Positions 1 to 22,900 of a stretch of 32,000 bases of DNA are shown here, in pieces. A program made the position numbers and the translations under genes. Below the pieces are notes generated by a model. The model had not been told where the DNA came from and made no database searches. It was given only the letters and a program-made list of their open reading frames with translations. This DNA comes from Sinorhizobium meliloti (GTDB taxonomy: Bacteria > Pseudomonadota > Alphaproteobacteria > Rhizobiales > Rhizobiaceae): contig NZ_JAGIOS010000004.1 in NCBI RefSeq assembly GCF_017876815.1, forward strand, positions 1 to 32,000, given 5' to 3'. Numbering within the stretch: position 1 is the stretch's first letter; every line of letters begins with the position of its first letter.

Positions 1-1969
1 CGAGCGACAGCCGCCGCAGACGCTCCATCATTTGAACGGCCAACAATGAGTGGCCGCCGAGTTCGAAGAAGTTGTCGTGGCGCCCGACCTGCTCGACGCC
101 GAGAAGCTCGGCCCAGATCCCGGCCAGCAGCGTCTCGATCTCGCCCTGCGGCGCCTCGTAGGCCCGACGCGCATAGGCATCGTCGTCGGGGACCGGCAGC
201 GCCTTGCGATCGAGCTTGCCGTTCACCGTCAGCGGCAGTGCATCCAGCCGCACGAAGGCCGACGGCACCATGTAGTCCGGCAGCAGGCCACCCAGATGCG
301 CCCGCAACGACGCAGCAAGCCCGGCGCCATCGGCTTCGGCCGACCCGTCCGTCGTCTTCGCAACCACATAGGCGACGAGCCGCTTGTCGCCCGCCGCATC
401 CGCGTGCGCCACCACCGCGGCATCGCCGACAAGCTCATGCTCCAGCAGCCGGGCGGCGATCTCGCCCGGCTCGATGCGGAAGCCGCGGATCTTCACCTGG
501 TCGTCATTGCGGCCCAGAAACTCGAGATTGCCGTCCGGCAGGTAGCGCGCCAGGTCGCCGCTCCGGTACATCCGGGCGCCGGCCTTGCCGCTGAACGGAT
601 CCGCCAGGAACCGCTCCGCCGTCAGATCCGGACGGTTCAGGTAGCCGCGCGCCACCCCCGCCCCGCCGATATAAAGCTCACCAACCGCCCCAAACGGAAC
701 CGGCTGACCATGGCCGTCAAGCACATAAAGCCGCGTGTTCGCAATCGGACGGCCGATCGGCACATACCGGTGAGGCGCCTCAATTCTCGTGTCGGTAAGA
801 AAGGTGGTCGCCCAAATCGTAGTCTCCGTCGGACCATAAAGATTTCTGAGAGATTTTACCCTTCTGCCGAGGTTCGAGGCCAGTTCTGAAGGCAACGCTT
901 CGCCGCCACACAACGCACTTAAATCGGGCGCACCCTCCCAGCCGGCGTCGAAGAGCATACGCCACGCCGCGGGGTCGCCTGCATCACAGTTATCTTCTGA
1001 TGGGATAGATACCGCTGTAATCCAATAACACTGGTTCCGTGAGCAACAACGACGTTAGCTCCCACGGCCAGTGGCAGATAGAGTTCCAGCCCCGCAATGT
1101 CGAAAGAGATCGTCGTGATCGCGAGGAGTGAATCGCGCTCTGTGAGGCCCGATACATCTAAAAGAGCGCGTAGAACATTGAGAACACTTGCATGCTCGAC
1201 CATGACGCCCTTAGGCGTGCCGGTGGATCCCGATGTGTAGATGACATAGGCGAGATTGCGGGCTGTCAGGCCGAGGGCATGCGGGTCGGGATCGTCAGGG
1301 ACTGGTCGGCCCAAGCGGCATGGCCGCATCGAGATCGACCGCGCTCAGATCGGCGATTGCCTCGGCGCCCAACGCCGCGCGGCCGGCGGCGTCGCAAAGC
1401 AGCAGCCGCGGGCCGGCATCGTCGAGCAACTGCCGCAGCCGTTCGCCGGATAGGCCGGGTCGAGCGGCACATAGGCGCCGCCGGCCTTGAGGATCGCCAG
1501 CAGTCCCACCACCATCGCCGGGCTGCGCTCGACGCAGATCGCCACTGGCTGGTCCGGCCTCACCCCGAGCCCGATCAGATGATGGGCCAGCCGGTTGGCA
1601 TCGGCATTGAGCGCGCCATAGGAGATCGACTGCTCTTCGAAGACCAGTGCGACCGCGTCGGCACCCGGCGCACCTGCGCCTCGAACAGCGCATGCACGCA
1701 AAGATCCGACGGATAGTCCGCTTCCGTCCGGTTCAACTCCTCCAGCAGGTAGCTGCGCTCCTCAGCCGGAAGAATGTCGAGCTCGCGCACCGGCCTATCG
1801 GGCGCTTGCTCCAGCGCGTCGACCAGTTGCTCGAGCGCCCGCTGCATATAGCCGCAGATCCGATCGGCGGAGATCGTTCGACCGCATCCGCCGTGAGCCC
1901 CAGCTCCTGACCAAAATCATCCACCGACAATGTCAGCGGGTAGTTGGTCCGTTCCTCGCCCCCAGCCAT
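1..1969 (-). pseudogene. Frameshift-broken, 3'-partial continuation of the same NRPS (module 10: end of C domain, Gly-type A domain, start of T domain); may be a sequencing artefact rather than a true pseudogene
   Basis: Minus-strand fragments 1733..1969, 1575..1847, 1345..1701 and 919..1329, plus an unlisted frame open to nt 1, together reproduce the C-end/A/T sequence of intact module 5 (16159-19431). Continuity is broken by seven 1-nt deletions relative to the other copies, at 971-974, 1298/1299, 1317-1318, 1448-1449, 1660-1661, 1876 and 1959-1963. The GGHS Ser codon is at 47-49. The Ser-to-Ser distance M9-M10 is 3266 nt, exactly 3273 (the M4-M5 distance) minus 7. Confidence 0.85.
758..1191 (-). 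other. A-domain specificity cassette c (copy 3 of 3), Gly, carrying a 1-nt deletion
   Basis: Nucleotide sequence matches 16975-17409 except that the G5 run is G4 at 971-974, shifting the frame ([12 protein letters not shown] instead of [12 protein letters not shown]). Confidence 0.8.
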
Positions 1970-4900
1970 TCCATGCCGGACAGCACGTCGCTTGTTCCCT
2001 CGCCGGCCATGGCCGGCGTGTTGTGGCGATAGTTCAGCAGCGCACTGAACAGTGGCGCTGGTGCGGCAATATCGCAGCAGCGTTGCGCCAATGCCAGCGA
2101 GGCATGCTCGTGTGAGAGCAATTCGGCCAGACGGGCGTGGGCGATACGCACACTTTCCTCGACCCCGGTCTCATCCAGATCCAGCCGCAACGGCAAGGTA
2201 TTCATGAACAAGCCCATGGCACGGTCGGCGCCGGCACCCGCATGCATGCGGCCGAACAGCACCGTGCCGAACACCACCTGCTCGCGCCCGCTGCTCAGCG
2301 CCACCACCTGGGCCCAGGCCAGATGGCAAAGGCTAGCCAGACTCACCCCCAGCCGCCGCGCCTGGTGGCGCAGCCGATCGTTGAGCGCCTGCGGCAGCAT
2401 CCGCCGTGCCTCGCGGGATCCGCGGCCGTCGCCGTAGACCTCGCTCAGAGCGAACGGCAGGGTCGGCTCGTCGATGTCGGCCAGCATCTCCCGGAAGAAC
2501 GCTTCATGCGCTTTGGCATCCATGCCAAGCCGCGCCTGCGCCACCAGGTTGCGGAACGGCTGCGGCGCTGCAAGCTCATGCGCGCGCCCCTGCAGCACGG
2601 CCCGGACCTCGGCATGCATCACTTCGGCCGTCGTATGATCGCCGATCAGATGGTGCTGCAACACCAAAAGCAGCCAGCGCCCACTGCCCGGTTCGCGCGC
2701 GATCACGAACCGCATCAGCGGCGCCCGGCCAAGGTCGAGACGGTACTGGCGCGGATCGAACCGCCGCCTGAGCTCATCGGCGCCGGAACCATCACAGCCC
2801 TCCAGCTCGACCTCGAGCACATCCAAGGCCGCCTTGCGCCAGACAACCTGCGCCGGGCTCGACAGACCCTCCCAGACAAAGGCCGTGCGCAGAATGTCGT
2901 GGCGGTCGACCACCTGTTGAACCGCAGCAAGGTAGCGATCGAGCACACCCCGCTCGGCAAAGGCCATCTGCGACATCAGGAGATAGGGGTCACCCTGGGT
3001 TGCCAGCAAATGATGGAACAGAATGCCGTCCTGCAGCGGCGACAGGCCATAGATATCCTGGATATTGCCGACGCCGCCGGGCACCGTCGACACGATCCGG
3101 TCGATCTCCGGTTGGGTAAGATCGATCAGCGGCAGCATCTGCGGCGTGATCGCCGTACTCTGTTCCGTGATCGGGTTGGCAGGCACCTCCACCTCCCGGT
3201 GGCTGCCAAGACTGGCGGCCAGATCGGCAAGCATCGGCTTTGCAAATACGGTGCGAACCTCGACCCCGAGCGACAGCCGCCGCAGACGCTCCATCATTTG
3301 AACGGCCAACAATGAGTGGCCGCCGAGCTCGAAGAAGTTGTCGTGGCGCCCGACCTGCTCGACGCCGAGAAGCTCGGCCCAGATCCCGGCCAGCAGCGTC
3401 TCGATCTCGCCCTGCGGCGCCTCGTAGGCCCGACGCGCATAGGCATCGTCGTCGGGGACCGGCAGCGCCTTGCGGTCGAGCTTGCCGTTCACCGTCAGCG
3501 GCAGTGCATCCAGCCGCACGAAGGCCGACGGCACCATGTAGTCCGGTAGCAGGCCACCCAGATGCGCCCGCAACGACGCAGCAAGCCCGGCGCCATCGGC
3601 TTCGGCCGACCCGTCCGTCGTCTTCGCAACCACATAGGCGACGAGCCGCTTGTCGCCCGCCGCATCCGCGTGCGCCACCACCGCGGCATCGCCGACAAGC
3701 TCATGCTCCAGCAGCCGGGCGGCGATCTCGCCCGGCTCGATGCGGAAGCCGCGGATCTTCACCTGGTCGTCATTGCGGCCCAGAAACTCGAGATTGCCGT
3801 CCGGCAGGTAGCGCGCCAGGTCGCCGCTCCGGTACATCCGGGCGCCGGCCTTGCCGCTGAACGGATCCGCCAGGAACCGCTCCGCCGTCAGATCCGGACG
3901 GTTCAGGTAGCCGCGCGCCACCCCCGCCCCGCCGATATAAAGCTCACCAACCGCCCCAAACGGAACCGGCTGACCATGGCCGTCCAGCAGATAGATCCGC
4001 GTGTTCGAGATCGGACGCCCGATCGTTTCGACAACAGCCTGTCCCCTCGGCATGCAAATCCAAGTCGAGTACGTCGTTGTCTCCGAAGGGGCGTACAGAT
4101 TGCAAATCTTCTGGACGCGCGTGCTCTCGAATATCCTCTCGATTAGGTCTGCCTTCACCCGCTCGCCCGCCAAATTGATGACGCTTGCCGATGCCGGCAC
4201 GGCTTTCTGGTTGACCAGAGCGGTGATCGCCGAGGGGACCGTGTTGATCAAGGAGGCATCCACGGGCGTTCGGGCCAGCTTCAGTGCATCCTCGACGAGG
4301 TACAGCTTGCTTCCCTGCGAAAGCGGAAGGAAACACTCGTAAACGGACAGATCAAAACAGACCGAGGTCGAGAACAGCGTGCGCCTGATCTCTGATTCGG
4401 CAAACACGCCGCCACTCCAATGCAGCAGGTTCACTGTGTTCCGATGCTCGACCATGACGCCCTTAGGCGTGCCGGTGGATCCCGATGTGTAGATGACATA
4501 GGCGAGATTGCGGGCTGTCAGGCCGAGGGCATGCGGGTCGGGATCGTCAGCGGACTGGTCGGCCCAGGCGGGCATGGCCGTATCGAGATCGACCGCGCTC
4601 AGATCGGCGATTGCCTCGGCGCCCAACGCCGCGCGGCCGGCGGCGTCGCAAAGCAGCAGCCGCGGGCCGGCATCGTCGAGCAACTGCCGCAGCCGTTCGC
4701 CGGGATAGGCCGGGTCGAGCGGCACATAGGCGCCGCCGGCCTTGAGGATCGCCAGCAGTCCCACCACCATCGCCGGGCTGCGCTCGACGCAGATCGCCAC
4801 TGGCTGGTCCGGCCTCACCCCGAGCCCGATCAGATGATGGGCCAGCCGGTTGGCATCGGCATTGAGCGCGCCATAGGAGATCGACTGCTCTTCGAAGACC

Positions 4901-7900
4901 AGTGCGACCGCGTCGGGCACCCGGCGCACCTGCGCCTCGAACAGCGCATGCACGCAAAGATCCGACGGATAGTCCGCTTCCGTCCGGTTCAACTCCTCCA
5001 GCAGGTAGCTGCGCTCCTCAGCCGGAAGAATGTCGAGCTCGCGCACCGGCCTATCGGGCGCTTGCTCCAGCGCGTCGACCAGTTGCTCGAGCGCCCGCTG
5101 CATATAGCCGCAGATCCGATCGGCGGAGATCGGTTCGACCGCATCCGCCGTGAGCCCCAGCTCCTGACCAAAATCATCCACCGACAATGTCAGCGGGTAG
5201 TTGGTCCGTTCCTCGTCCCCCAGCCATTCCATGCCGGACAGCACGTCGCTTGTTCCCTCGCCGGCCATGGCCGGCGTGTTGTGGCGATAGTTCAGCAGCG
5301 CACTGAACAGTGGCGCTGGTGCGGCAATATCGCTGCAGCGTTGCGCCAATGCCAGCGAGGCATGCTCGTGTGAGAGCAATTCGGCCAGACGGGCGTGGGC
5401 GATACGCACACTTTCCTCGACCCCGGTCTCATCCAGATCCAGCCGCAACGGCAAGGTATTCATGAACAAGCCCATGGCACGGTCGGCGCCGGCACCCGCA
5501 TGCATGCGGCCGAACAGCACCGTGCCGAACACCACCTGCTCGCGCCCGCTGCTCAGCGCCACCACCTGGGCCCAGGCCAGATGGCAAAGGCTAGCCAGAC
5601 TCACCCCCAGCCGCCGCGCCTGGTGGCGCAGCCGATCGTTGAGCGCCTGCGGCAGCATCCGCCGTGCCTCGCGGGATCCGCGGCCGTCGCCGTAGACCTC
5701 GCTCAGAGCGAACGGCAGGGTCGGCTCGTCGATGTCGGCCAGCATCTCCCGGAAGAACGCTTCATGCGCTTTGGCATCCATGCCAAGCCGCGCCTGCGCC
5801 ACCAGGTTGCGGAACGGCTGCGGCGCTGCAAGCTCATGCGCGCGCCCCTGCAGCACGGCCCGGACCTCGGCATGCATCACTTCGGCCGTCGTATGATCGC
5901 CGATCAGATGGTGCTGCAACACCAAAAGCAGCCAGCGCCCACTGCCCGGTTCGCGCGCGATCACGAACCGCATCAGCGGCGCCCGGCCAAGGTCGAGACG
6001 GTACTGGCGCGGATCGAACCGCCGCCTGAGCTCATCGGCGCCGGAACCATCACAGCCCTCCAGCTCGACCTCGAGCACATCCAAGGCCGCCTTGCGCCAG
6101 ACAACCTGCGCCGGGCTCGACAGACCCTCCCAGACAAAGGCCGTGCGCAGAATGTCGTGGCGGTCGACCACCTGTTGAACCGCAGCAAGGTAGCGATCGA
6201 GCACACCCCGCTCGGCAAAGGCCATCTGCGACATCAGGAGATAGGGGTCACCCTGGGTTGCCAGCAAATGATGGAACAGAATGCCGTCCTGCAGCGGCGA
6301 CAGGCCATAGATATCCTGGATATTGCCGACGCCGCCGGGCACCGTCGACACGATCCGGTCGATCTCCGGTTGGGTAAGATCGATCAGCGGCAGCATCTGC
6401 GGCGTGATCGCCGTACTCTGTTCCGTGATCGGGTTGGCAGGCACCGCCACCTCCCGGTGGCTGCCAAGACTGGCGGCCAGATCGGCAAGCATCGGCTTTG
6501 CAAATACGGTGCGAACCTCGACCCCGAGCGACAGCCGCCGCAGACGCTCCATCATTTGAACGGCCAACAATGAGTGGCCGCCGAGTTCGAAGAAGTTGTC
6601 GTGGCGCCCGACCTGCTCGACGCCGAGAAGCTCGGCCCAGATCCCGGCCAGCAGCGTCTCGATCTCGCCCTGCGGCGCCTCGTAGGCCCGACGCGCATAG
6701 GCATCGTCGTCGGGGACCGGCAGCGCCTTGCGGTCGAGCTTGCCGTTCACCGTCAGCGGCAGTGCATCCAGCCGCACGAAGGCCGACGGCACCATGTAGT
6801 CCGGTAGCAGGCCACCCAGATGCGCCCGCAACGACGCAGCAAGCCCGGCGCCATCGGCTTCGGCCGACCCGTCCGTCGTCTTCGCAACCACATAGGCGAC
6901 GAGCCGCTTGTCGCCCGCCGCATCCGCGTGCGCCACCACCGCGGCATCGCCGACAAGCTCATGCTCCAGCAGCCGGGCGGCGATCTCGCCCGGCTCGATG
7001 CGGAAGCCGCGGATCTTCACCTGGTCGTCATTGCGGCCCAGAAACTCGAGATTGCCGTCCGGCAGGTAGCGCGCCAGGTCGCCGCTCCGGTACATCCGGG
7101 CGCCGGCCTTGCCGCTGAACCGATCCGCCAGGAACCGCTCCGCCGTCAGATCCGGACGGTTCAGGTAGCCGCGCGCCACCCCCGCCCCGCCGATATAAAG
7201 CTCACCAACCGCCCCAAACGGGACGGGTGCGCCATGACCGTCAAGCACATAAAGCCGCGTGTTCGCAATCGGACGGCCGATCGGGATTGACGTAAGGCCT
7301 TCTACGTCGCCCGTTATTTCGAATGCGGCGCATCCAACGGTGGCCTCTGTCGGACCAAAATGGTTGATCAGGCGCACATTTGGAAAACGCCGCTGCCAAA
7401 GTTGCATGTCTGCTGGAACCAGCGATTCGCCACCAACCATAAGTGCTTTAGTTGGAGGTTGTCCCTCGTTATCATCAATCTTTTTGTTAAGAATGCTCAG
7501 ATGCGAGGGAGTAACTTTAACCAAGTCGAAGGCTTGTCCCTTCTTCAATTCACCGAGAGAGATAATTTGGACAGTTGGATCTAGAAGATGAAGTTTCGTT
7601 CCCGCCAACAGCGGACCGAATAGGGTCGTAACGATGCCATCAAAACTCATTGAATGCGTTACAGGCGAGCCGTTGGACGTTCTTTTGTAAAAGCTTCGAT
7701 TTGACCACTGCAAATAGTTCGACAAGTGTTGATGCTCGACCATGACGCCCTTAGGCGTGCCGGTGGATCCCGATGTGTAGATGACATAGGCGAGATTGCG
7801 GGCTGTCAGGCCGAGGGCATGCGGGTCGGGATCGTCAGCGGACTGGTCGGCCCAGGCGGGCATGGCTGCATCGAGATCGACCGCGCTCAGATCGGCGATT

Positions 7901-10900
7901 GCCTCGGCGCCCAACGCCGCGCGACCGGCGGCGTCGCAAAGCAGCAGCCGCGGGCCGGCATCGTCGAGCAACTGCCGCAGCCGTTCGCCGGGATAGGCCG
8001 GGTCGAGCGGCACATAGGCGCCGCCGGCCTTGAGGATCGCCAGCAGTCCCACCACCATCGCCGGGCTGCGCTCGACGCAGATCGCCACTGGCTGGTCCGG
8101 CCTCACCCCGAGCCCGATCAGATGATGGGCCAGCCGGTTGGCATCGGCATTGAGCGCGCCATAGGAGATCGACTGCTCTTCGAAGACCAGTGCGACCGCG
8201 TCGGGCACCCGGCGCACCTGCGCCTCGAACAGCGCATGCACGCAAAGATCCGACGGATAGTCCGCTTCCGTCCGGTTCAACTCCTCCAGCAGGTAGCTGC
8301 GCTCGTCGGGAGGCAGGATGTCCAGCTCGGACACCGGCTGCTCGGCATCGGCAAGCATCGCCCGCAGCAGCGCCAGCAGATAACCACATTGCCGCTCGAT
8401 CGTCGCCCGGTCGAACAACGCCGTCGCATAACCGAGAGTCCCGGCGATGGCCTCGCCCTGCTCTCCCAGGTTCAGTTCCAGATCGAACTTGACCTGATCG
8501 AGCCCCTCGCCCGCAGCCTCCACCTGCAGCCCCGGCAGGTCCAATGACCCGCCGGTGTTGTTCTGCCAGGCCAGTCCCACCTGGAACAACGGCGTGTGAC
8601 CGAGAGCCCGGGGCGGCTGGACGATCTCCACCACCTGCTCGAACGGCAGGTCCTGATGATCCTGCGCAGTCAAGGCCGCGCGCCGCGCCCGTTCCAGGAG
8701 ATCGGACACGCTCGGCTCGCCCGACAGATCGATTCGAACCGCCAGGGTGTTGACGAAGAAACCGATTAGATCCTCGATCTCGCGGCGACGACGATTGGCC
8801 GTCGGCACACCGATCACGATATCGTCCTGCCCGGACAGGCGCGACAGCACCGCAGCCCAGGCCGCCAGCACTGTCATGAACAACGTCGTGCCATGCTGCC
8901 GGCTCAGCCGCTTGAGCCCGCGCGTCAGAGCCTCATCGATGATAACCGGCACGCTGGCTCCGGCAAACGACTGCTGTGCCGGCCGCGGCCGGTCCGTCGG
9001 CAGCGCCAGACGGGCCGGGGCGCCAGACAGGGTGTCGCGCCAATACTGCGCCTGACGCTGCAGCCGCTCGCCGGACAACCATTGCCGTTGCCAGGCGGCA
9101 TAATCCGGATACTGGATCGCCAGCGGCGGCAAAGGATCGTCCTCTCCAGCCTCAAACGCGCGGTAAAGGCTGCTGAGCTCGCGCACCAGCACCCCCATCG
9201 ACCAGCCGTCCGAGACTATGTGATGCTGCGTCAGCAGAAAGACGTGCTCCTCATCCGCCAGCCGGATCAGCCGGCCGCGGATCAGCGGCTCGCGCGCCAG
9301 ATCGAACGGCGTGCGCGCCTCTTCTTGGCACAGATCCAAAAGCGCGGCTTGCGCATCCGGCCTGTCCCGCAGATCGTGCTCGACCACCGGCAATCCCCTG
9401 TCCCCGGACAAAATCTGGACCTGCGGGTCATCCTCTCCGGCGACGAACGTGCAGCGCAGCGCCTCGTGACGGGCAAACAGGCGGTCAAGGCTGCGCCGCC
9501 AGGCGACACGGTCGAGTCTGCCCTGCAGTCGCCACCCCAGGGGAATGTTATAGTTCGTGCTGTCTTCGTCCAACTGTGCCAAGAACCAGAGACGCTGCTG
9601 CGAATAGGACAGCGGAAGCGCACCATCACGTCCGACTGGCATGATGACCGGTGCTGTCTGCGCACCAGAACCGTTCAGCACTTCGCCAACACTTAGCGCC
9701 AAATCGGCCAATGTTGGCTTGGCGAACAGGATCGCCAGCGGCAGCTCCACTGCCAAGGCCTCGGTCAGCCGGACGAGCACGCGCACCGCCAACAATGAGT
9801 GGCCGCCGAGCTCGAAGAAGTTGTCGTGGCGCCCGACCTGCTCGACGCCGAGAAGCTCGGCCCAGATCCCGGCCAGCAGCGTCTCGATCTCGCCCTGCGG
9901 CGCCTCGTAGGCCCGACGCGCATAGGCATCGTCGTCGGGGACCGGCAGCGCCTTGCGGTCGAGCTTGCCGTTCACCGTCAGCGGCAGTGCATCCAGCCGC
10001 ACGAAGGCCGACGGCACCATGTAGTCCGGTAGCAGGCCACCCAGATGCGCCCGCAACGACGCAGCAAGCCCGGCGCCATCGGCTTCGGCCGACCCGTCCG
10101 TCGTCTTCGCAACCACATAGGCGACGAGCCGCTTGTCGCCCGCCGCATCCGCGTGCGCCACCACCGCGGCATCGCCGACAAGCTCATGCTCCAGCAGCCG
10201 GGCGGCGATCTCGCCCGGCTCGATGCGGAAGCCGCGGATCTTCACCTGGTCGTCATTGCGGCCCAGAAACTCGAGATTGCCGTCCGGCAGGTAGCGCGCC
10301 AGGTCGCCGCTCCGGTACATCCGGGCGCCGGCCTTGCCGCTGAACGGATCCGCCAGGAACCGCTCCGCCGTCAGATCCGGACGGTTCAGGTAGCCGCGCG
10401 CCACCCCCGCCCCGCCGATATAAAGCTCACCAACCGCCCCAAACGGAACCGGCTGACCATGGCCGTCCAGCAGATAGATCCGCGTGTTCGAGATCGGACG
10501 CCCGATCGTTTCGACAACAGCCTGTCCCCTCGGCATGCAAATCCAAGTCGAGTACGTCGTTGTCTCCGAAGGGGCGTACAGATTGCAAATCTTCTGGACG
10601 CGCGTGCTCTCGAATATCCTCTCGATTAGGTCTGCCTTCACCCGCTCGCCCGCCAAATTGATGACGCTTGCCGATGCCGGCACGGCTTTCTGGTTGACCA
10701 GAGCGGTGATCGCCGAGGGGACCGTGTTGATCAAGGAGGCATCCACGGGCGTTCGGGCCAGCTTCAGTGCATCCTCGACGAGGTACAGCTTGCTTCCCTG
10801 CGAAAGCGGAAGGAAACACTCGTAAACGGACAGATCAAAACAGACCGAGGTCGAGAACAGCGTGCGCCTGATCTCTGATTCGGCAAACACGCCGCCACTC

Positions 10901-13900
10901 CAATGCAGCAGGTTCACTGTGTTCCGATGCTCGACCATGACGCCCTTAGGCGTGCCGGTGGATCCCGATGTGTAGATGACATAGGCGAGATTGCGGGCTG
11001 TCAGGCCGAGGGCATGCGGGTCGGGATCGTCAGCGGACTGGTCGGCCCAGGCGGGCATGGCCGTATCGAGATCGACCGCGCTCAGATCGGCGATTGCCTC
11101 GGCGCCCAACGCCGCGCGACCGGCGGCGTCGCAAAGCAGCAGCCGCGGGCCGGCATCGTCGAGCAACTGCCGCAGCCGTTCGCCGGGATAGGCCGGGTCG
11201 AGCGGCACATAGGCGCCGCCGGCCTTGAGGATCGCCAGCAGTCCCACCACCATCGCCGGGCTGCGCTCGACGCAGATCGCCACTGGCTGGTCCGGCCTCA
11301 CCCCGAGCCCGATCAGATGATGGGCCAGCCGGTTGGCATCGGCATTGAGCGCGCCATAGGAGATCGACTGCTCTTCGAAGACCAGTGCGACCGCGTCGGG
11401 CACCCGGCGCACCTGCGCCTCGAACAGCGCATGCACGCAAAGATCCGACGGATAGTCCGCTTCCGTCCGGTTCAACTCCTCCAGCAGGTAGCTGCGCTCG
11501 TCGGGAGGCAGGATGTCCAGCTCGGACACCGGCTGCTCGGCATCGGCAAGCATCGCCCGCAGCAGCGCCAGCAGATAACCACATTGCCGCTCGATCGTCG
11601 CCCGGTCGAACAACGCCGTCGCATAACCGAGAGTCCCGGCGATGGCCTCGCCCTGCTCTCCCAGGTTCAGTTCCAGATCGAACTTGACCTGATCGAGCCC
11701 CTCGCCCGCAGCCTCCACCTGCAGCCCCGGCAGGTCCAATGACCCGCCGGTGTTGTTCTGCCAGGCCAGTCCCACCTGGAACAACGGCGTGTGACCGAGA
11801 GCCCGGGGCGGCTGGACGATCTCCACCACCTGCTCGAACGGCAGGTCCTGATGATCCTGCGCAGTCAAGGCCGCGCGCCGCGCCCGTTCCAGGAGATCGG
11901 ACACGCTCGGCTCGCCCGACAGATCGATTCGAACCGCCAGGGTGTTGACGAAGAAACCGATTAGATCCTCGATCTCGCGGCGACGACGATTGGCCGTCGG
12001 CACACCGATCACGATATCGTCCTGCCCGGACAGGCGCGACAGCACCGCAGCCCAGGCCGCCAGCACTGTCATGAACAACGTCGTGCCATGCTGCCGGCTC
12101 AGCCGCTTGAGCCCGCGCGTCAGAGCCTCATCGATGATAACCGGCACGCTGGCTCCGGCAAACGACTGCTGTGCCGGCCGCGGCCGGTCCGTCGGCAGCG
12201 CCAGACGGGCCGGGGCGCCAGACAGGGTGTCGCGCCAATACTGCGCCTGACGCTGCAGCCGCTCGCCGGACAACCATTGCCGTTGCCAGGCGGCATAATC
12301 CGGATACTGGATCGCCAGCGGCGGCAAAGGATCGTCCTCTCCAGCCTCAAACGCGCGGTAAAGGCTGCTGAGCTCGCGCACCAGCACCCCCATCGACCAG
12401 CCGTCCGAGACTATGTGATGCTGCGTCAGCAGAAAGACGTGCTCCTCATCCGCCAGCCGGATCAGCCGGCCGCGGATCAGCGGCTCGCGCGCCAGATCGA
12501 ACGGCGTGCGCGCCTCTTCTTGGCACAGATCCAAAAGCGCGGCTTGCGCATCCGGCCTGTCCCGCAGATCGTGCTCGACCACCGGCAATCCCCTGTCCCC
12601 GGACAAAATCTGGACCTGCGGGTCATCCTCTCCGGCGACGAACGTGCAGCGCAGCGCCTCGTGACGGGCAAACAGGCGGTCAAGGCTGCGCCGCCAGGCG
12701 ACACGGTCGAGTCTGCCCTGCAGTCGCCACCCCAGGGGAATGTTATAGTTCGTGCTGTCTTCGTCCAACTGTGCCAAGAACCAGAGACGCTGCTGCGAAT
12801 AGGACAGCGGAAGCGCACCATCACGTCCGACTGGCATGATGACCGGTGCTGTCTGCGCACCAGAACCGTTCAGCACTTCGCCAACACTTAGCGCCAAATC
12901 GGCCAATGTTGGCTTGGCGAACAGGATCGCCAGCGGCAGCTCCACTGCCAAGGCCTCGGTCAGCCGGACGAGCACGCGCACCGCCAACAATGAGTGGCCG
13001 CCGAGCTCGAAGAAGTTGTCGTGGCGCCCGACCTGCTCGACGCCGAGAAGCTCGGCCCAGATCCCGGCCAGCAGCGTCTCGATCTCGCCCTGCGGCGCCT
13101 CGTAGGCCCGACGCGCATAGGCATCGTCGTCGGGGACCGGCAGCGCCTTGCGGTCGAGCTTGCCGTTCACCGTCAGCGGCAGTGCATCCAGCCGCACGAA
13201 GGCCGACGGCACCATGTAGTCCGGTAGCAGGCCACCCAGATGCGCCCGCAACGACGCAGCAAGCCCGGCGCCATCGGCTTCGGCCGACCCGTCCGTCGTC
13301 TTCGCAACCACATAGGCGACGAGCCGCTTGTCGCCCGCCGCATCCGCGTGCGCCACCACCGCGGCATCGCCGACAAGCTCATGCTCCAGCAGCCGGGCGG
13401 CGATCTCGCCCGGCTCGATGCGGAAGCCGCGGATCTTCACCTGGTCGTCATTGCGGCCCAGAAACTCGAGATTGCCGTCCGGCAGGTAGCGCGCCAGGTC
13501 GCCGCTCCGGTACATCCGGGCGCCGGCCTTGCCGCTGAACGGATCCGCCAGGAACCGCTCCGCCGTCAGATCCGGACGGTTCAGGTAGCCGCGCGCCACC
13601 CCCGCCCCGCCGATATAAAGCTCACCAACCGCCCCAAACGGAACCGGCTGACCATGGCCGTCAAGCACATAAAGCCGCGTGTTCGCAATCGGACGGCCGA
13701 TCGGCACATACCGGTGAGGCGCCTCAATTCTCGTGTCGGTAAGAAAGGTGGTCGCCCAAATCGTAGTCTCCGTCGGACCATAAAGATTTCTGAGAGATTT
13801 TACCCTTCTGCCGAGGTTCGAGGCCAGTTCTGAAGGCAACGCTTCGCCGCCACACAACGCACTTAAATCGGGCGCACCCTCCCAGCCGGCGTCGAAGAGC

Positions 13901-16900
13901 ATACGCCACGCCGCGGGGGTCGCCTGCATCACAGTTATCTTCTGATGGGATAGATACCGCTGTAATCCAATAACACTGGTTCCGTGAGCAACAACGACGT
14001 TAGCTCCCACGGCCAGTGGCAGATAGAGTTCCAGCCCCGCAATGTCGAAAGAGATCGTCGTGATCGCGAGGAGTGAATCGCGCTCTGTGAGGCCCGATAC
14101 ATCTAAAAGAGCGCGTAGAACATTGAGAACACTTGCATGCTCGACCATGACGCCCTTAGGCGTGCCGGTGGATCCCGATGTGTAGATGACATAGGCGAGA
14201 TTGCGGGCTGTCAGGCCGAGGGCATGCGGGTCGGGATCGTCAGCGGACTGGTCGGCCCAAGCGGGCATGGCCGCATCGAGATCGACCGCGCTCAGATCGG
14301 CGATTGCCTCGGCGCCCAACGCCGCGCGACCGGCGGCGTCGCAAAGCAGCAGCCGCGGGCCGGCATCGTCGAGCAACTGCCGCAGCCGTTCGCCGGGATA
14401 GGCCGGGTCGAGCGGCACATAGGCGCCGCCGGCCTTGAGGATCGCCAGCAGTCCCACCACCATCGCCGGGCTGCGCTCGACGCAGATCGCCACTGGCTGG
14501 TCCGGCCTCACCCCGAGCCCGATCAGATGATGGGCCAGCCGGTTGGCATCGGCATTGAGCGCGCCATAGGAGATCGACTGCTCTTCGAAGACCAGTGCGA
14601 CCGCGTCGGGCACCCGGCGCACCTGCGCCTCGAACAGCGCATGCACGCAAAGATCCGACGGATAGTCCGCTTCCGTCCGGTTCAACTCCTCCAGCAGGTA
14701 GCTGCGCTCCTCAGCCGGAAGAATGTCGAGCTCGCGCACCGGCCTATCGGGCGCTTGCTCCAGCGCGTCGACCAGTTGCTCGAGCGCCCGCTGCATATAG
14801 CCGCAGATCCGATCGGCGGAGATCGGTTCGACCGCATCCGCCGTGAGCCCCAGCTCCTGACCAAAATCATCCACCGACAATGTCAGCGGGTAGTTGGTCC
14901 GTTCCTCGCCCCCCAGCCATTCCATGCCGGACAGCACGTCGCTTGTTCCCTCGCCGGCCATGGCCGGCGTGTTGTGGCGATAGTTCAGCAGCGCACTGAA
15001 CAGTGGCGCTGGTGCGGCAATATCGCTGCAGCGTTGCGCCAATGCCAGCGAGGCATGCTCGTGTGAGAGCAATTCGGCCAGACGGGCGTGGGCGATACGC
15101 ACACTTTCCTCGACCCCGGTCTCATCCAGATCCAGCCGCAACGGCAAGGTATTCATGAACAAGCCCATGGCACGGTCGGCGCCGGCACCCGCATGCATGC
15201 GGCCGAACAGCACCGTGCCGAACACCACCTGCTCGCGCCCGCTGCTCAGCGCCACCACCTGGGCCCAGGCCAGATGGCAAAGGCTAGCCAGACTCACCCC
15301 CAGCCGCCGCGCCTGGTGGCGCAGCCGATCGTTGAGCGCCTGCGGCAGCATCCGCCGTGCCTCGCGGGATCCGCGGCCGTCGCCGTAGACCTCGCTCAGA
15401 GCGAACGGCAGGGTCGGCTCGTCGATGTCGGCCAGCATCTCCCGGAAGAACGCTTCATGCGCTTTGGCATCCATGCCAAGCCGCGCCTGCGCCACCAGGT
15501 TGCGGAACGGCTGCGGCGCTGCAAGCTCATGCGCGCGCCCCTGCAGCACGGCCCGGACCTCGGCATGCATCACTTCGGCCGTCGTATGATCGCCGATCAG
15601 ATGGTGCTGCAACACCAAAAGCAGCCAGCGCCCACTGCCCGGTTCGCGCGCGATCACGAACCGCATCAGCGGCGCCCGGCCAAGGTCGAGACGGTACTGG
15701 CGCGGATCGAACCGCCGCCTGAGCTCATCGGCGCCGGAACCATCACAGCCCTCCAGCTCGACCTCGAGCACATCCAAGGCCGCCTTGCGCCAGACAACCT
15801 GCGCCGGGCTCGACAGACCCTCCCAGACAAAGGCCGTGCGCAGAATGTCGTGGCGGTCGACCACCTGTTGAACCGCAGCAAGGTAGCGATCGAGCACACC
15901 CCGCTCGGCAAAGGCCATCTGCGACATCAGGAGATAGGGGTCACCCTGGGTTGCCAGCAAATGATGGAACAGAATGCCGTCCTGCAGCGGCGACAGGCCA
16001 TAGATATCCTGGATATTGCCGACGCCGCCGGGCACCGTCGACACGATCCGGTCGATCTCCGGTTGGGTAAGATCGATCAGCGGCAGCATCTGCGGCGTGA
16101 TCGCCGTACTCTGTTCCGTGATCGGGTTGGCAGGCACCGCCACCTCCCGGTGGCTGCCAAGACTGGCGGCCAGATCGGCAAGCATCGGCTTTGCAAATAC
16201 GGTGCGAACCTCGACCCCGAGCGACAGCCGCCGCAGACGCTCCATCATTTGAACGGCCAACAATGAGTGGCCGCCGAGTTCGAAGAAGTTGTCGTGGCGC
16301 CCGACCTGCTCGACGCCGAGAAGCTCGGCCCAGATCCCGGCCAGCAGCGTCTCGATCTCGCCCTGCGGCGCCTCGTAGGCCCGACGCGCATAGGCATCGT
16401 CGTCGGGGACCGGCAGCGCCTTGCGATCGAGCTTGCCGTTCACCGTCAGCGGCAGTGCATCCAGCCGCACGAAGGCCGACGGCACCATGTAGTCCGGCAG
16501 CAGGCCACCCAGATGCGCCCGCAACGACGCAGCAAGCCCGGCGCCATCGGCTTCGGCCGACCCGTCCGTCGTCTTCGCAACCACATAGGCGACGAGCCGC
16601 TTGTCGCCCGCCGCATCCGCGTGCGCCACCACCGCGGCATCGCCGACAAGCTCATGCTCCAGCAGCCGGGCGGCGATCTCGCCCGGCTCGATGCGGAAGC
16701 CGCGGATCTTCACCTGGTCGTCATTGCGGCCCAGAAACTCGAGATTGCCGTCCGGCAGGTAGCGCGCCAGGTCGCCGCTCCGGTACATCCGGGCGCCGGC
16801 CTTGCCGCTGAACGGATCCGCCAGGAACCGCTCCGCCGTCAGATCCGGACGGTTCAGGTAGCCGCGCGCCACCCCCGCCCCGCCGATATAAAGCTCACCA

Positions 16901-19900
16901 ACCGCCCCAAACGGAACCGGCTGACCATGGCCGTCAAGCACATAAAGCCGCGTGTTCGCAATCGGACGGCCGATCGGCACATACCGGTGAGGCGCCTCAA
17001 TTCTCGTGTCGGTAAGAAAGGTGGTCGCCCAAATCGTAGTCTCCGTCGGACCATAAAGATTTCTGAGAGATTTTACCCTTCTGCCGAGGTTCGAGGCCAG
17101 TTCTGAAGGCAACGCTTCGCCGCCACACAACGCACTTAAATCGGGCGCACCCTCCCAGCCGGCGTCGAAGAGCATACGCCACGCCGCGGGGGTCGCCTGC
17201 ATCACAGTTATCTTCTGATGGGATAGATACCGCTGTAATCCAATAACACTGGTTCCGTGAGCAACAACGACGTTAGCTCCCACGGCCAGTGGCAGATAGA
17301 GTTCCAGCCCCGCAATGTCGAAAGAGATCGTCGTGATCGCGAGGAGTGAATCGCGCTCTGTGAGGCCCGATACATCTAAAAGAGCGCGTAGAACATTGAG
17401 AACACTTGCATGCTCGACCATGACGCCCTTAGGCGTGCCGGTGGATCCCGATGTGTAGATGACATAGGCGAGATTGCGGGCTGTCAGGCCGAGGGCATGC
17501 GGGTCGGGATCGTCAGCGGACTGGTCGGCCCAAGCGGGCATGGCCGCATCGAGATCGACCGCGCTCAGATCGGCGATTGCCTCGGCGCCCAACGCCGCGC
17601 GGCCGGCGGCGTCGCAAAGCAGCAGCCGCGGGCCGGCATCGTCGAGCAACTGCCGCAGCCGTTCGCCGGGATAGGCCGGGTCGAGCGGCACATAGGCGCC
17701 GCCGGCCTTGAGGATCGCCAGCAGTCCCACCACCATCGCCGGGCTGCGCTCGACGCAGATCGCCACTGGCTGGTCCGGCCTCACCCCGAGCCCGATCAGA
17801 TGATGGGCCAGCCGGTTGGCATCGGCATTGAGCGCGCCATAGGAGATCGACTGCTCTTCGAAGACCAGTGCGACCGCGTCGGGCACCCGGCGCACCTGCG
17901 CCTCGAACAGCGCATGCACGCAAAGATCCGACGGATAGTCCGCTTCCGTCCGGTTCAACTCCTCCAGCAGGTAGCTGCGCTCCTCAGCCGGAAGAATGTC
18001 GAGCTCGCGCACCGGCCTATCGGGCGCTTGCTCCAGCGCGTCGACCAGTTGCTCGAGCGCCCGCTGCATATAGCCGCAGATCCGATCGGCGGAGATCGGT
18101 TCGACCGCATCCGCCGTGAGCCCCAGCTCCTGACCAAAATCATCCACCGACAATGTCAGCGGGTAGTTGGTCCGTTCCTCGTCCCCCAGCCATTCCATGC
18201 CGGACAGCACGTCGCTTGTTCCCTCGCCGGCCATGGCCGGCGTGTTGTGGCGATAGTTCAGCAGCGCACTGAACAGTGGCGCTGGTGCGGCAATATCGCT
18301 GCAGCGTTGCGCCAATGCCAGCGAGGCATGCTCGTGTGAGAGCAATTCGGCCAGACGGGCGTGGGCGATACGCACACTTTCCTCGACCCCGGTCTCATCC
18401 AGATCCAGCCGCAACGGCAAGGTATTCATGAACAAGCCCATGGCACGGTCGGCGCCGGCACCCGCATGCATGCGGCCGAACAGCACCGTGCCGAACACCA
18501 CCTGCTCGCGCCCGCTGCTCAGCGCCACCACCTGGGCCCAGGCCAGATGGCAAAGGCTAGCCAGACTCACCCCCAGCCGCCGCGCCTGGTGGCGCAGCCG
18601 ATCGTTGAGCGCCTGCGGCAGCATCCGCCGTGCCTCGCGGGATCCGCGGCCGTCGCCGTAGACCTCGCTCAGAGCGAACGGCAGGGTCGGCTCGTCGATG
18701 TCGGCCAGCATCTCCCGGAAGAACGCTTCATGCGCTTTGGCATCCATGCCAAGCCGCGCCTGCGCCACCAGGTTGCGGAACGGCTGCGGCGCTGCAAGCT
18801 CATGCGCGCGCCCCTGCAGCACGGCCCGGACCTCGGCATGCATCACTTCGGCCGTCGTATGATCGCCGATCAGATGGTGCTGCAACACCAAAAGCAGCCA
18901 GCGCCCACTGCCCGGTTCGCGCGCGATCACGAACCGCATCAGCGGCGCCCGGCCAAGGTCGAGACGGTACTGGCGCGGATCGAACCGCCGCCTGAGCTCA
19001 TCGGCGCCGGAACCATCACAGCCCTCCAGCTCGACCTCGAGCACATCCAAGGCCGCCTTGCGCCAGACAACCTGCGCCGGGCTCGACAGACCCTCCCAGA
19101 CAAAGGCCGTGCGCAGAATGTCGTGGCGGTCGACCACCTGTTGAACCGCAGCAAGGTAGCGATCGAGCACACCCCGCTCGGCAAAGGCCATCTGCGACAT
19201 CAGGAGATAGGGGTCACCCTGGGTTGCCAGCAAATGATGGAACAGAATGCCGTCCTGCAGCGGCGACAGGCCATAGATATCCTGGATATTGCCGACGCCG
19301 CCGGGCACCGTCGACACGATCCGGTCGATCTCCGGTTGGGTAAGATCGATCAGCGGCAGCATCTGCGGCGTGATCGCCGTACTCTGTTCCGTGATCGGGT
19401 TGGCAGGCACCGCCACCTCCCGGTGGCTGCCAAGACTGGCGGCCAGATCGGCAAGCATCGGCTTTGCAAATACGGTGCGAACCTCGACCCCGAGCGACAG
19501 CCGCCGCAGACGCTCCATCATTTGAACGGCCAACAATGAGTGGCCGCCGAGCTCGAAGAAGTTGTCGTGGCGCCCGACCTGCTCGACGCCGAGAAGCTCG
19601 GCCCAGATCCCGGCCAGCAGCGTCTCGATCTCGCCCTGCGGCGCCTCGTAGGCCCGACGCGCATAGGCATCGTCGTCGGGGACCGGCAGCGCCTTGCGGT
19701 CGAGCTTGCCGTTCACCGTCAGCGGCAGTGCATCCAGCCGCACGAAGGCCGACGGCACCATGTAGTCCGGTAGCAGGCCACCCAGATGCGCCCGCAACGA
19801 CGCAGCAAGCCCGGCGCCATCGGCTTCGGCCGACCCGTCCGTCGTCTTCGCAACCACATAGGCGACGAGCCGCTTGTCGCCCGCCGCATCCGCGTGCGCC

Positions 19901-22900
19901 ACCACCGCGGCATCGCCGACAAGCTCATGCTCCAGCAGCCGGGCGGCGATCTCGCCCGGCTCGATGCGGAAGCCGCGGATCTTCACCTGGTCGTCATTGC
20001 GGCCCAGAAACTCGAGATTGCCGTCCGGCAGGTAGCGCGCCAGGTCGCCGCTCCGGTACATCCGGGCGCCGGCCTTGCCGCTGAACGGATCCGCCAGGAA
20101 CCGCTCCGCCGTCAGATCCGGACGGTTCAGGTAGCCGCGCGCCACCCCCGCCCCGCCGATATAAAGCTCACCAACCGCCCCAAACGGAACCGGCTGACCA
20201 TGGCCGTCCAGCAGATAGATCCGCGTGTTCGAGATCGGACGCCCGATCGTTTCGACAACAGCCTGTCCCCTCGGCATGCAAATCCAAGTCGAGTACGTCG
20301 TTGTCTCCGAAGGGGCGTACAGATTGCAAATCTTCTGGACGCGCGTGCTCTCGAATATCCTCTCGATTAGGTCTGCCTTCACCCGCTCGCCCGCCAAATT
20401 GATGACGCTTGCCGATGCCGGCACGGCTTTCTGGTTGACCAGAGCGGTGATCGCCGAGGGGACCGTGTTGATCAAGGAGGCATCCACGGGCGTTCGGGCC
20501 AGCTTCAGTGCATCCTCGACGAGGTACAGCTTGCTTCCCTGCGAAAGCGGAAGGAAACACTCGTAAACGGACAGATCAAAACAGACCGAGGTCGAGAACA
20601 GCGTGCGCCTGATCTCTGATTCGGCAAACACGCCGCCACTCCAATGCAGCAGGTTCACTGTGTTCCGATGCTCGACCATGACGCCCTTAGGCGTGCCGGT
20701 GGATCCCGATGTGTAGATGACATAGGCGAGATTGCGGGCTGTCAGGCCGAGGGCATGCGGGTCGGGATCGTCAGCGGACTGGTCGGCCCAGGCGGGCATG
20801 GCCGTATCGAGATCGACCGCGCTCAGATCGGCGATTGCCTCGGCGCCCAACGCCGCGCGACCGGCGGCGTCGCAAAGCAGCAGCCGCGGGCCGGCATCGT
20901 CGAGCAACTGCCGCAGCCGTTCGCCGGGATAGGCCGGGTCGAGCGGCACATAGGCGCCGCCGGCCTTGAGGATCGCCAGCAGTCCCACCACCATCGCCGG
21001 GCTGCGCTCGACGCAGATCGCCACTGGCTGGTCCGGCCTCACCCCGAGCCCGATCAGATGATGGGCCAGCCGGTTGGCATCGGCATTGAGCGCGCCATAG
21101 GAGATCGACTGCTCTTCGAAGACCAGTGCGACCGCGTCGGGCACCCGGCGCACCTGCGCCTCGAACAGCGCATGCACGCAAAGATCCGACGGATAGTCCG
21201 CTTCCGTCCGGTTCAACTCCTCCAGCAGGTAGCTGCGCTCCTCAGCCGGAAGAATGTCGAGCTCGCGCACCGGCCTATCGGGCGCTCGCTCCAGCGCGTC
21301 GACCAGTTGCTCGAGCGCCCGCTGCATATAGCCGCAGATCCGATCGGCGGAGATCGGTTCGACCGCATCCGCCGTGAGCCCCAGCTCCTGACCAAAATCA
21401 TCCACCGACAATGTCAGCGGGTAGTTGGTCCGTTCCTCGCCCCCCAGCCATTCCATGCCGGACAGCACGTCGCTTGTTCCCTCGCCGGCCATGGCCGGCG
21501 TGTTGTGGCGATAGTTCAGCAGCGCACTGAACAGTGGCGCTGGTGCGGCAATATCGCTGCAGCGTTGCGCCAATGCCAGCGAGGCATGCTCGTGTGAGAG
21601 CAATTCGGCCAGACGGGCGTGGGCGATACGCACACTTTCCTCGACCCCGGTCTCATCCAGATCCAGCCGCAACGGCAAGGTATTCATGAACAAGCCCATG
21701 GCACGGTCGGCGCCGGCACCCGCATGCATGCGGCCGAACAGCACCGTGCCGAACACCACCTGCTCGCGCCCGCTGCTCAGCGCCACCACCTGGGCCCAGG
21801 CCAGATGGCAAAGGCTAGCCAGACTCACCCCCAGCCGCCGCGCCTGGTGGCGCAGCCGATCGTTGAGCGCCTGCGGCAGCATCCGCCGTGCCTCGCGGGA
21901 TCCGCGGCCGTCGCCGTAGACCTCGCTCAGAGCGAACGGCAGGGTCGGCTCGTCGATGTCGGCCAGCATCTCCCGGAAGAACGCTTCATGCGCTTTGGCA
22001 TCCATGCCAAGCCGCGCCTGCGCCACCAGGTTGCGGAACGGCTGCGGCGCTGCAAGCTCATGCGCGCGCCCCTGCAGCACGGCCCGGACCTCGGCATGCA
22101 TCACTTCGGCCGTCGTATGATCGCCGATCAGATGGTGCTGCAACACCAAAAGCAGCCAGCGCCCACTGCCCGGTTCGCGCGCGATCACGAACCGCATCAG
22201 CGGCGCCCGGCCAAGGTCGAGACGGTACTGGCGCGGATCGAACCGCCGCCTGAGCTCATCGGCGCCGGAACCATCACAGCCCTCCAGCTCGACCTCGAGC
22301 ACATCCAAGGCCGCCTTGCGCCAGACAACCTGCGCCGGGCTCGACAGACCCTCCCAGACAAAGGCCGTGCGCAGAATGTCGTGGCGGTCGACCACCTGTT
22401 GAACCGCAGCAAGGTAGCGATCGAGCACACCCCGCTCGGCAAAGGCCATCTGCGACATCAGGAGATAGGGGTCACCCTGGGTTGCCAGCAAATGATGGAA
22501 CAGAATGCCGTCCTGCAGCGGCGACAGGCCATAGATATCCTGGATATTGCCGACGCCGCCGGGCACCGTCGACACGATCCGGTCGATCTCCGGTTGGGTA
22601 AGATCGATCAGCGGCAGCATCTGCGGCGTGATCGCCGTACTCTGTTCCGTGATCGGGTTGGCAGGCACCGCCACCTCCCGGTGGCTGCCAAGACTGGCGG
22701 CCAGATCGGCAAGCATCGGCTTTGCAAATACGGTGCGAACCTCGACCCCGAGCGACAGCCGCCGCAGACGCTCCATCATTTGAACGGCCAACAATGAGTG
22801 GCCGCCGAGTTCGAAGAAGTTGTCGTGGCGCCCGACCTGCTCGACGCCGAGAAGCTCGGCCCAGATCCCGGCCAGCAGCGTCTCGATCTCGCCCTGCGGC

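Follow-up and report, generated by a model that had tools for sequence, protein, structure and literature searches.

Predicted dual epimerization/condensation domains, some after glycine modules, in a giant plasmid-borne peptide synthetase of Sinorhizobium meliloti

Which subtype of condensation (C) domain is repeated along a giant nonribosomal peptide synthetase (NRPS) of Sinorhizobium meliloti, and why do some of the repeats stand after modules for the achiral residue glycine? The analysed DNA (hereafter the window) is a stretch of 32,000 nucleotides that forms the opening 32 kb of contig NZ_JAGIOS010000004.1 (229,537 bp, 60.2% GC) of assembly GCF_017876815.1, a genome of four replicons and 7.34 Mb. 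The window is nearly filled by a single minus-strand open reading frame (ORF; 1933..31971) of 10,012 aa, in which seven C domains share the core motif HHLIGDH. The best explanation, held with good though not full confidence, is that these are dual epimerization/condensation (E/C) domains with a predicted L-to-D flip, and that block-wise recombination has placed some of them after Gly.

Subtype of the repeated condensation domains

The modules in the window, numbered M1 to M10, were read in the order LCL-X, E/C-X, E/C-X, E/C-Ala, E/C-Gly, E/C-Gly, LCL-Ala, LCL-Asp*, E/C-Ala and E/C-(Gly). A regular-expression scan of the ORF recovered the N-terminal motif HHLLATQGD seven times and the core HHLIGDH seven times, and the spacing from the one to the other is 120 residues in every copy. 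The copies, all on the minus strand, begin with NIQDIYG and finish with DILPAEE. The copy singled out by an earlier note on this DNA, which was made from the sequence alone, lies at 5014..6324 (HHLLATQGD 6273-6247, HHLIGDH 5913-5893), after the Asp-like module M8 and before the adenylation (A) domain of the Ala module M9. Translation of 5017-6564 gave an open 516 aa, consisting of the second half of a thiolation (T) domain, a linker and the complete C domain. The other copies follow M1 (27796..29106), M2 (24517..25827) and M3 (21238..22548), all three with the A-domain code DANNVGEVGK, then M4 (Ala; 17980..19290), M5 (Gly; 14707..16017, one residue, D383G, off the reference copy) and M9 (Ala; 1954..3066, with a single-base deletion that breaks the frame near 1958). 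They differ from one another at no more than 2 of 470 residues; the copies are therefore one sequence repeated rather than seven independent occurrences, and the significance of the assignment rests on profile and tree tests, not on the number of copies. The same ORF also holds three HHIVSDG cores, which belong to a C domain at 11500..12813 (core 12420-12400), to a second copy starting at 9618 (core 9225-9205) and to a further copy, the first along the ORF, that is cut by the window edge (core 31998-31978); these are likewise on the minus strand.

By definition, dual E/C domains carry an additional His motif, HH[I/L]xxxxGD, close to the N-terminus (Rausch 2007, PMC1894796). Their core was given as HHxxxDH in a 2023 study of Pseudomonas lipopeptides, where the Gly of HHxxxDG is replaced by His or, less often, by Ala or Asn (PMC10531924). 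Subtype profiles (hidden Markov models, HMMs) for Dual, DCL, LCL and Starter domains were built from the supplementary alignments of Rausch 2007, and the Bradyrhizobium sequence was excluded from the Dual profile. The HHLIGDH domains scored 648 bits with the Dual profile, against 189 with DCL, 61 with LCL and 60 with Starter; a Dual profile made from Pseudomonas and Ralstonia sequences only still gave 611 bits. The HHIVSDG domains scored 560 bits with LCL, 228 with DCL and 103 with Dual. In the maximum-likelihood (ML) tree, the HHLIGDH domains were placed inside the dual clade (support 100/100, stem length 1.57); their sister was module 3 of B. japonicum NP_768748, followed by Photorhabdus plu2670 and plu3263 (100/100). 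The HHIVSDG domains were sister to the LCL domains of ArfC (100/99), and by their HHxxxDG core, profile and clade they are assigned as LCL condensation domains.

An independent sample was drawn by scanning species-representative genomes, which yielded 73 loci from rhizobia, many Pseudomonas, Lysobacter, Caballeronia and others; every C domain in these loci was classified with the same subtype profiles. Among the 251 domains classified as Dual, the core was readable in 250, and its seventh residue was H in 228, A in 17, another residue in 5 and G in none. Of the 40 LCL-classified domains, 39 had G at this position. The N-terminal His motif was present in 226 of the 251 Dual domains versus none of the 49 non-Dual domains. 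Judged by profile, tree and motifs, the HHLIGDH domains are normal members of the known dual E/C subtype. The seven copies of the earlier note agreed exactly with the motif scan, the motif that it gave for dual domains is the published one, and its dual assignment was borne out both by the subtype profiles and by the phylogeny with LCL, DCL, dual and starter references. What did not hold was its description of the core as atypical, because the core of dual E/C domains usually reads HHxxxDH.

Three other identities were considered and rejected. An atypical or novel C subtype was discarded, as His for Gly in the core is the norm of the dual clade; a plain DCL or LCL domain was discarded on the HMM scores and the ML tree. 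The domain is not a separate E domain either, since an A domain follows directly and TIGR01720, the model for the C-terminal part of E domains, found no match in these domains at E <= 0.01. Each E/C domain leads directly into an A domain and opens the next module after a C-A-T module. The Pfam matches on the ORF were limited to AMP-binding, AMP-binding_C, PP-binding and Condensation; every module had a single Condensation hit, and an additional E-type domain was not found.

A Bradyrhizobium homologue with the same HHLIGDH core is already included in the 'Dual' file of Rausch 2007. This sequence, module 3 of NP_768748 from B. japonicum USDA 110, is 80% identical over 421 residues, shares the core and the 17-residue opening, and has HHLLAAKGD as its N-terminal motif (tree sister, 100/99). 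It differs in belonging to another, shorter NRPS with Ser upstream and Phe downstream, and its dual status is a prediction only. The C/E domains plu3263 and plu2670 of Photorhabdus luminescens, which we take to be those of the GameXPeptide synthetase GxpS and the kolossin synthetase, are 64.5-67% identical and have the HHLIGDH core and HHLLAxxGD in the same clade (100/100). Their hosts are entomopathogenic gammaproteobacteria and their peptides are short or of known structure; unlike here, the Photorhabdus sequences compared contain no Gly-to-C/E junction. The E/C domains of Pseudomonas lipopeptide synthetases (arthrofactin, orfamide, syringafactin, entolysin) have the same HHxxxDH and HH[I/L]xxxxGD motifs and the same T-E/C-A context without a separate E domain, but they form another sub-clade (48-58% identity for the Ofa and Syf dual domains). 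Whereas a lipoinitiation (starter) C domain opens those assembly lines, the present one begins with a formyltransferase-like domain fused to an LCL domain.

The search of the PDB found no solved dual-clade structure near the HHLIGDH domain; the top hit was McyB (8hlk, E = 9e-43), and the nearest solved structures (McyB 8hlk, PvdL) are DCL-like. The DCL domains (McyB 8hlk, SrfA-C, GrsB) are also the closest non-dual subtype, which fits the view of dual domains as DCL catalysts plus epimerase activity (Rausch 2007). They are, however, only 23-30% identical, have HHxxxDG, do not carry the N-terminal His motif, and are placed after a separate E domain.

The best NCBIfam model for the HHLIGDH domain was SolG (NF041803), with 635 bits over the C domain, a score far under the whole-protein cutoff of 2200 of that model. 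In the solanimycin paper, the C domain of SolG is assigned to the dual clade and is proposed to be iterative and possibly to dehydrate Ser. The match and the shared clade raise another reading, in which the domains of the window would carry out a different alpha-proton chemistry, for instance removal of water from the upstream residue, along the lines proposed for the dual-clade C domains of SolF/G/H. This is extremely improbable. The A domains upstream are predicted for Ala, Gly, Leu, Asp-like and Asn-like residues, all of which lack a beta-leaving group, and this makes a dehydratase-like role unlikely; the sole Thr module of this strain precedes an LCL domain; and SolG-type domains have HHxxDDx, not HHxxxDH.

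Predicted epimerization and D residues

By homology to the E/C domains of the arthrofactin, orfamide and GxpS type, the upstream T domain would hand its peptidyl thioester to the E/C domain. The latter would take off and return the alpha-proton of the C-terminal residue, turning L into D, and its DCL-like active site would then join the D donor to the L-aminoacyl-S-T that its own module carries. D residues are predicted from M1-M4, M8 and M9, plus M13, M14, M19 and M20 outside the window. After Gly (M5 and M10), exchange of the alpha-proton would have no stereochemical effect, and the E/C domain would in effect be a plain condensation domain.

The stereochemistry assigned to the C/E domains of GxpS is backed by isotope labelling. 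In Pseudomonas, 74 of 468 E/C-type domains with known outcome, about 1 in 6, do not epimerize (PMC10531924); the D configuration is for this reason only a prediction. The domains might belong to the dual clade by descent and catalyze condensation only, which would give an all-L or mostly L peptide. Both His motifs are nevertheless intact in all copies, and the nearest characterized relatives, those of GxpS, do epimerize. Moreover, two C types, each with its own T variant, are kept together in four strains, which is hard to explain if the two are equivalent. A condensation-only role would agree with the fact that the epi-inactive Pseudomonas domains carry no sequence signature, and with the placement of the same domain after achiral Gly. 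Swaps between E/C and LCL domains from strain to strain (Thr-to-LCL here, Thr-to-E/C in AK21) would also be easier if they were neutral. On balance, loss of epimerization is considered unlikely, and the preferred reading remains that of dual E/C domains that would epimerize wherever the upstream residue is chiral.

Dual domains after glycine modules

The Stachelhaus positions of the A domains were read by alignment to a GrsA fragment, and position 331, which is C or a gap in some codes, was set by eye from an 11-residue stretch to VG. In M5 and M6, the A-domain code is DILQLGLIWK, exactly the canonical Gly code, with FDIAGLE at 17322-17302 and 14049-14029; the same code is found in three further modules elsewhere. 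The pocket of M10 lies in the frameshifted stretch 1-1933, where FDIAGLE and TTIW are readable and indicate Gly. The remaining codes are Ala-type DLYNNALT(Y)K, Asn-like DANNVGEVGK and Asp-like DGTKMGHVGK, plus Leu, Thr and Asn. The code DANNVGEVGK occurs in three consecutive modules (30423-30403, 27144-27124 and 23865-23845); although Asn-like, it carries N at positions 239 and 278.

The A(Gly)-T unit of M5 (16018..17979, minus strand) ends in the T variant that always precedes E/C, and an E/C copy follows; this is the Gly-to-E/C junction inside the window. The A(Gly)-T unit of M6 (12814..14706, minus strand) has the same code and the other T variant, and an LCL copy comes next. The E/C domain downstream of M10 lies outside the window, at the opposite end of the circular contig. 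The placement of E/C domains after Gly at M5 and M10, pointed out in the earlier note, thus stands. Such junctions also occur on other plasmids, once on pSMED03 of S. medicae WSM419 and twice on pMl1 of S. meliloti ml46; S. meliloti AK21 has none. In total the junction is present in 3 of the 4 Sinorhizobium plasmids examined and in none of about 220 other dual domains with known upstream residue. The literature search found no useful precedent for Gly ahead of an E/C domain. This recurrent position after Gly is the only unusual feature of these domains.

Simple errors do not account for the junction. Mis-assignment of the Gly modules was rejected, as the code is exactly DILQLGLIWK. A Gly-specialized E/C variant was rejected too, since the lone D383G is also found in copies after other residues. 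An assembly artefact was rejected because WSM419 and ml46 have the junction too, in records labelled complete.

All E/C units share a homogenized block of 2.84 kb (4442..7284 on the minus strand; 99.1-99.9% DNA identity), which spans from the A domain after its pocket through T and E/C to just beyond motif A3 of the next A domain. What essentially sets the modules apart is an A-domain pocket island some 440 bp long. The T variant tracks the next C type, with one 14-residue sequence before E/C and another before LCL, both here and in WSM419. The E/C copies, at least 99.5% identical, stand after six different residue types in this NRPS family. The pattern of E/C and LCL domains varies between strains at apparently homologous positions, as with the Thr junctions mentioned above, and the module counts are 21 here (as assembled), 16 in WSM419, 16 in ml46 and 14 in AK21. 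Across the orthologous clusters, X-X is kept at the N-terminus and Asn-X-Leu-Gly-TE at the C-terminus.

These features would be explained if block-wise recombination, or gene conversion, of a unit made of half-T, E/C and A scaffold determined the C type, and the pocket cassette of about 440 bp independently determined the amino acid. With C type and pocket shuffled independently, an E/C domain could land after Gly, and, being stereochemically silent there, it would be tolerated. Recombination that swaps C/E and LCL units has been documented for GxpS. Judged from the sequences compared, cassette homogenization appears to be the best explanation of the E/C domains after Gly, and the near-identity of block and copies supports the cassette duplication that the earlier note had offered as one option.

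Some side observations concern the T domains. The variants split four residues past the Ser of GGHS (29364-29317, 13002-12955 and equivalent positions); one 10-residue form is always ahead of E/C and another always ahead of LCL. A third variant, with RVLAQA, stands before TE.

Several points weigh against the explanation by dual E/C domains and recombination. A Gly-type A domain stands upstream of none of the 164 dual domains in the sample whose upstream code could be read, and each of the four A domains in the 73-locus sample that look Gly-like precedes an LCL domain; in the Rausch files, 'gly_TO' is found 0 times under Dual, 0 times under DCL and 22 times under LCL. The Gly-to-E/C arrangement may therefore carry a cost that the explanation ignores. 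The subtype profiles were made from subsets of 7-21 sequences each, and the ML tree comprised 55 sequences, with E and Cy domains not among them. E/C domains that are epi-active and those that are epi-inactive are indistinguishable by sequence (PMC10531924), and the literature search found no paper on the product of this NRPS cluster. Finally, the assembled number of modules may be wrong, given the near-identical 3.2-kb repeats, and the gene is frameshifted at 970-1958.

The junction might also have been kept for a reason other than stereochemistry. The half-T and E/C unit could, for example, provide a docking or gating context required by the next module, and the near-identical copies together with the E/C-to-LCL swaps between strains could serve as a natural isogenic panel to reveal what turns epimerization in dual domains on or off. 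This is regarded as a rather doubtful suggestion, and dual E/C domains shuffled in blocks are preferred.

Integrity and setting of the synthetase gene

The NRPS runs across the origin of a circular plasmid of 229.5 kb: the contig ends join, and the T domain interrupted at position 1 of the window resumes at contig position 229535. The NRPS ORFs on the contig are 33099-1936, 228606-213205 and 213214-192872, with about 21 modules in total as assembled. Beyond the window the synthetase goes on into ORFs of 5,134 and 6,781 aa and ends with a terminal TE domain. The stretch 1..1933 (minus strand) continues the NRPS with the rest of an E/C copy, the A(Gly) domain of M10 and the start of a T domain, and is readable only by switching frames. 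Without frameshifts, the first NRPS gene would exceed 16,000 aa.

Compared with the module-5 copy, 970-1958 has lost single bases at seven places, mostly within short runs of G/C, and is free of substitutions; the closest one lies at 2076. The deletions break the NRPS frame and produce the stop at 1933. A decaying pseudogene, with domains that are non-functional in this strain, could be read from the ORF that stops there and resumes only via seven frame changes, from another frameshift near the contig end, and from the copy of Rhizobium leguminosarum Vaf10 (plasmid unnamed4), which insertion sequence (IS) elements break up too heavily for a comparison. However, the 30 kb upstream are open with not one stop, and one-base deletions with zero substitutions less than 2 kb from the contig start are the signature of a consensus error. 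The near-identical first NRPS gene of ml46 is intact (11,063 aa). The deletions are probably consensus errors near the contig start, and gene decay is very unlikely; an intact gene with dual E/C domains is preferred.

The giant NRPS sits on a Sinorhizobium accessory plasmid. A megablast search of 5017-6564 against plasmid records gave 99-100% identity to accessory plasmids of S. meliloti and S. medicae, 98-99% to Rhizobium plasmids, and 80-90% to others, mostly Bradyrhizobium. The identity of 98-99% in the E/C-coding DNA between the plasmids of Sinorhizobium and of Rhizobium leguminosarum/ruizarguesonis suggests recent horizontal spread among rhizobial genera.

Just outside the window (contig 32290-33048), the assembly line opens with a Formyl_trans_N-like domain (Pfam, 50 bits), which is fused straight to an LCL-type C domain and not to an A domain. 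It has N-Y-N where the catalytic N-x-H is expected, and it may not be an active formyltransferase. Directly downstream of TE (contig 188021-192872) are proteins of 511 aa and 249 aa, neither with a Pfam match, and then a nitroreductase/SagB-family protein, an Sfp-type phosphopantetheinyl transferase and a DDE transposase. This gene set likewise follows the NRPS in WSM419, AK21 and ml46. The ml46 plasmid also carries an alanine racemase gene (CP140885.1, 102165-103337), about 23 kb from the NRPS.

For annotation, these results mean that the domains should be labelled dual E/C, with tentative D marks at M1-M4, M8 and M9 of the predicted peptide. For the product of a synthetase that is plasmid-borne and widespread in rhizobia, a correct stereochemical prediction will aid structure elucidation and synthesis. 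The recurrent junction of E/C after Gly amounts to a small natural experiment and suggests that an achiral residue is tolerated at the donor site of a dual domain. Such tolerance would be useful for the recombination of NRPS modules, but it leaves current understanding unchanged.

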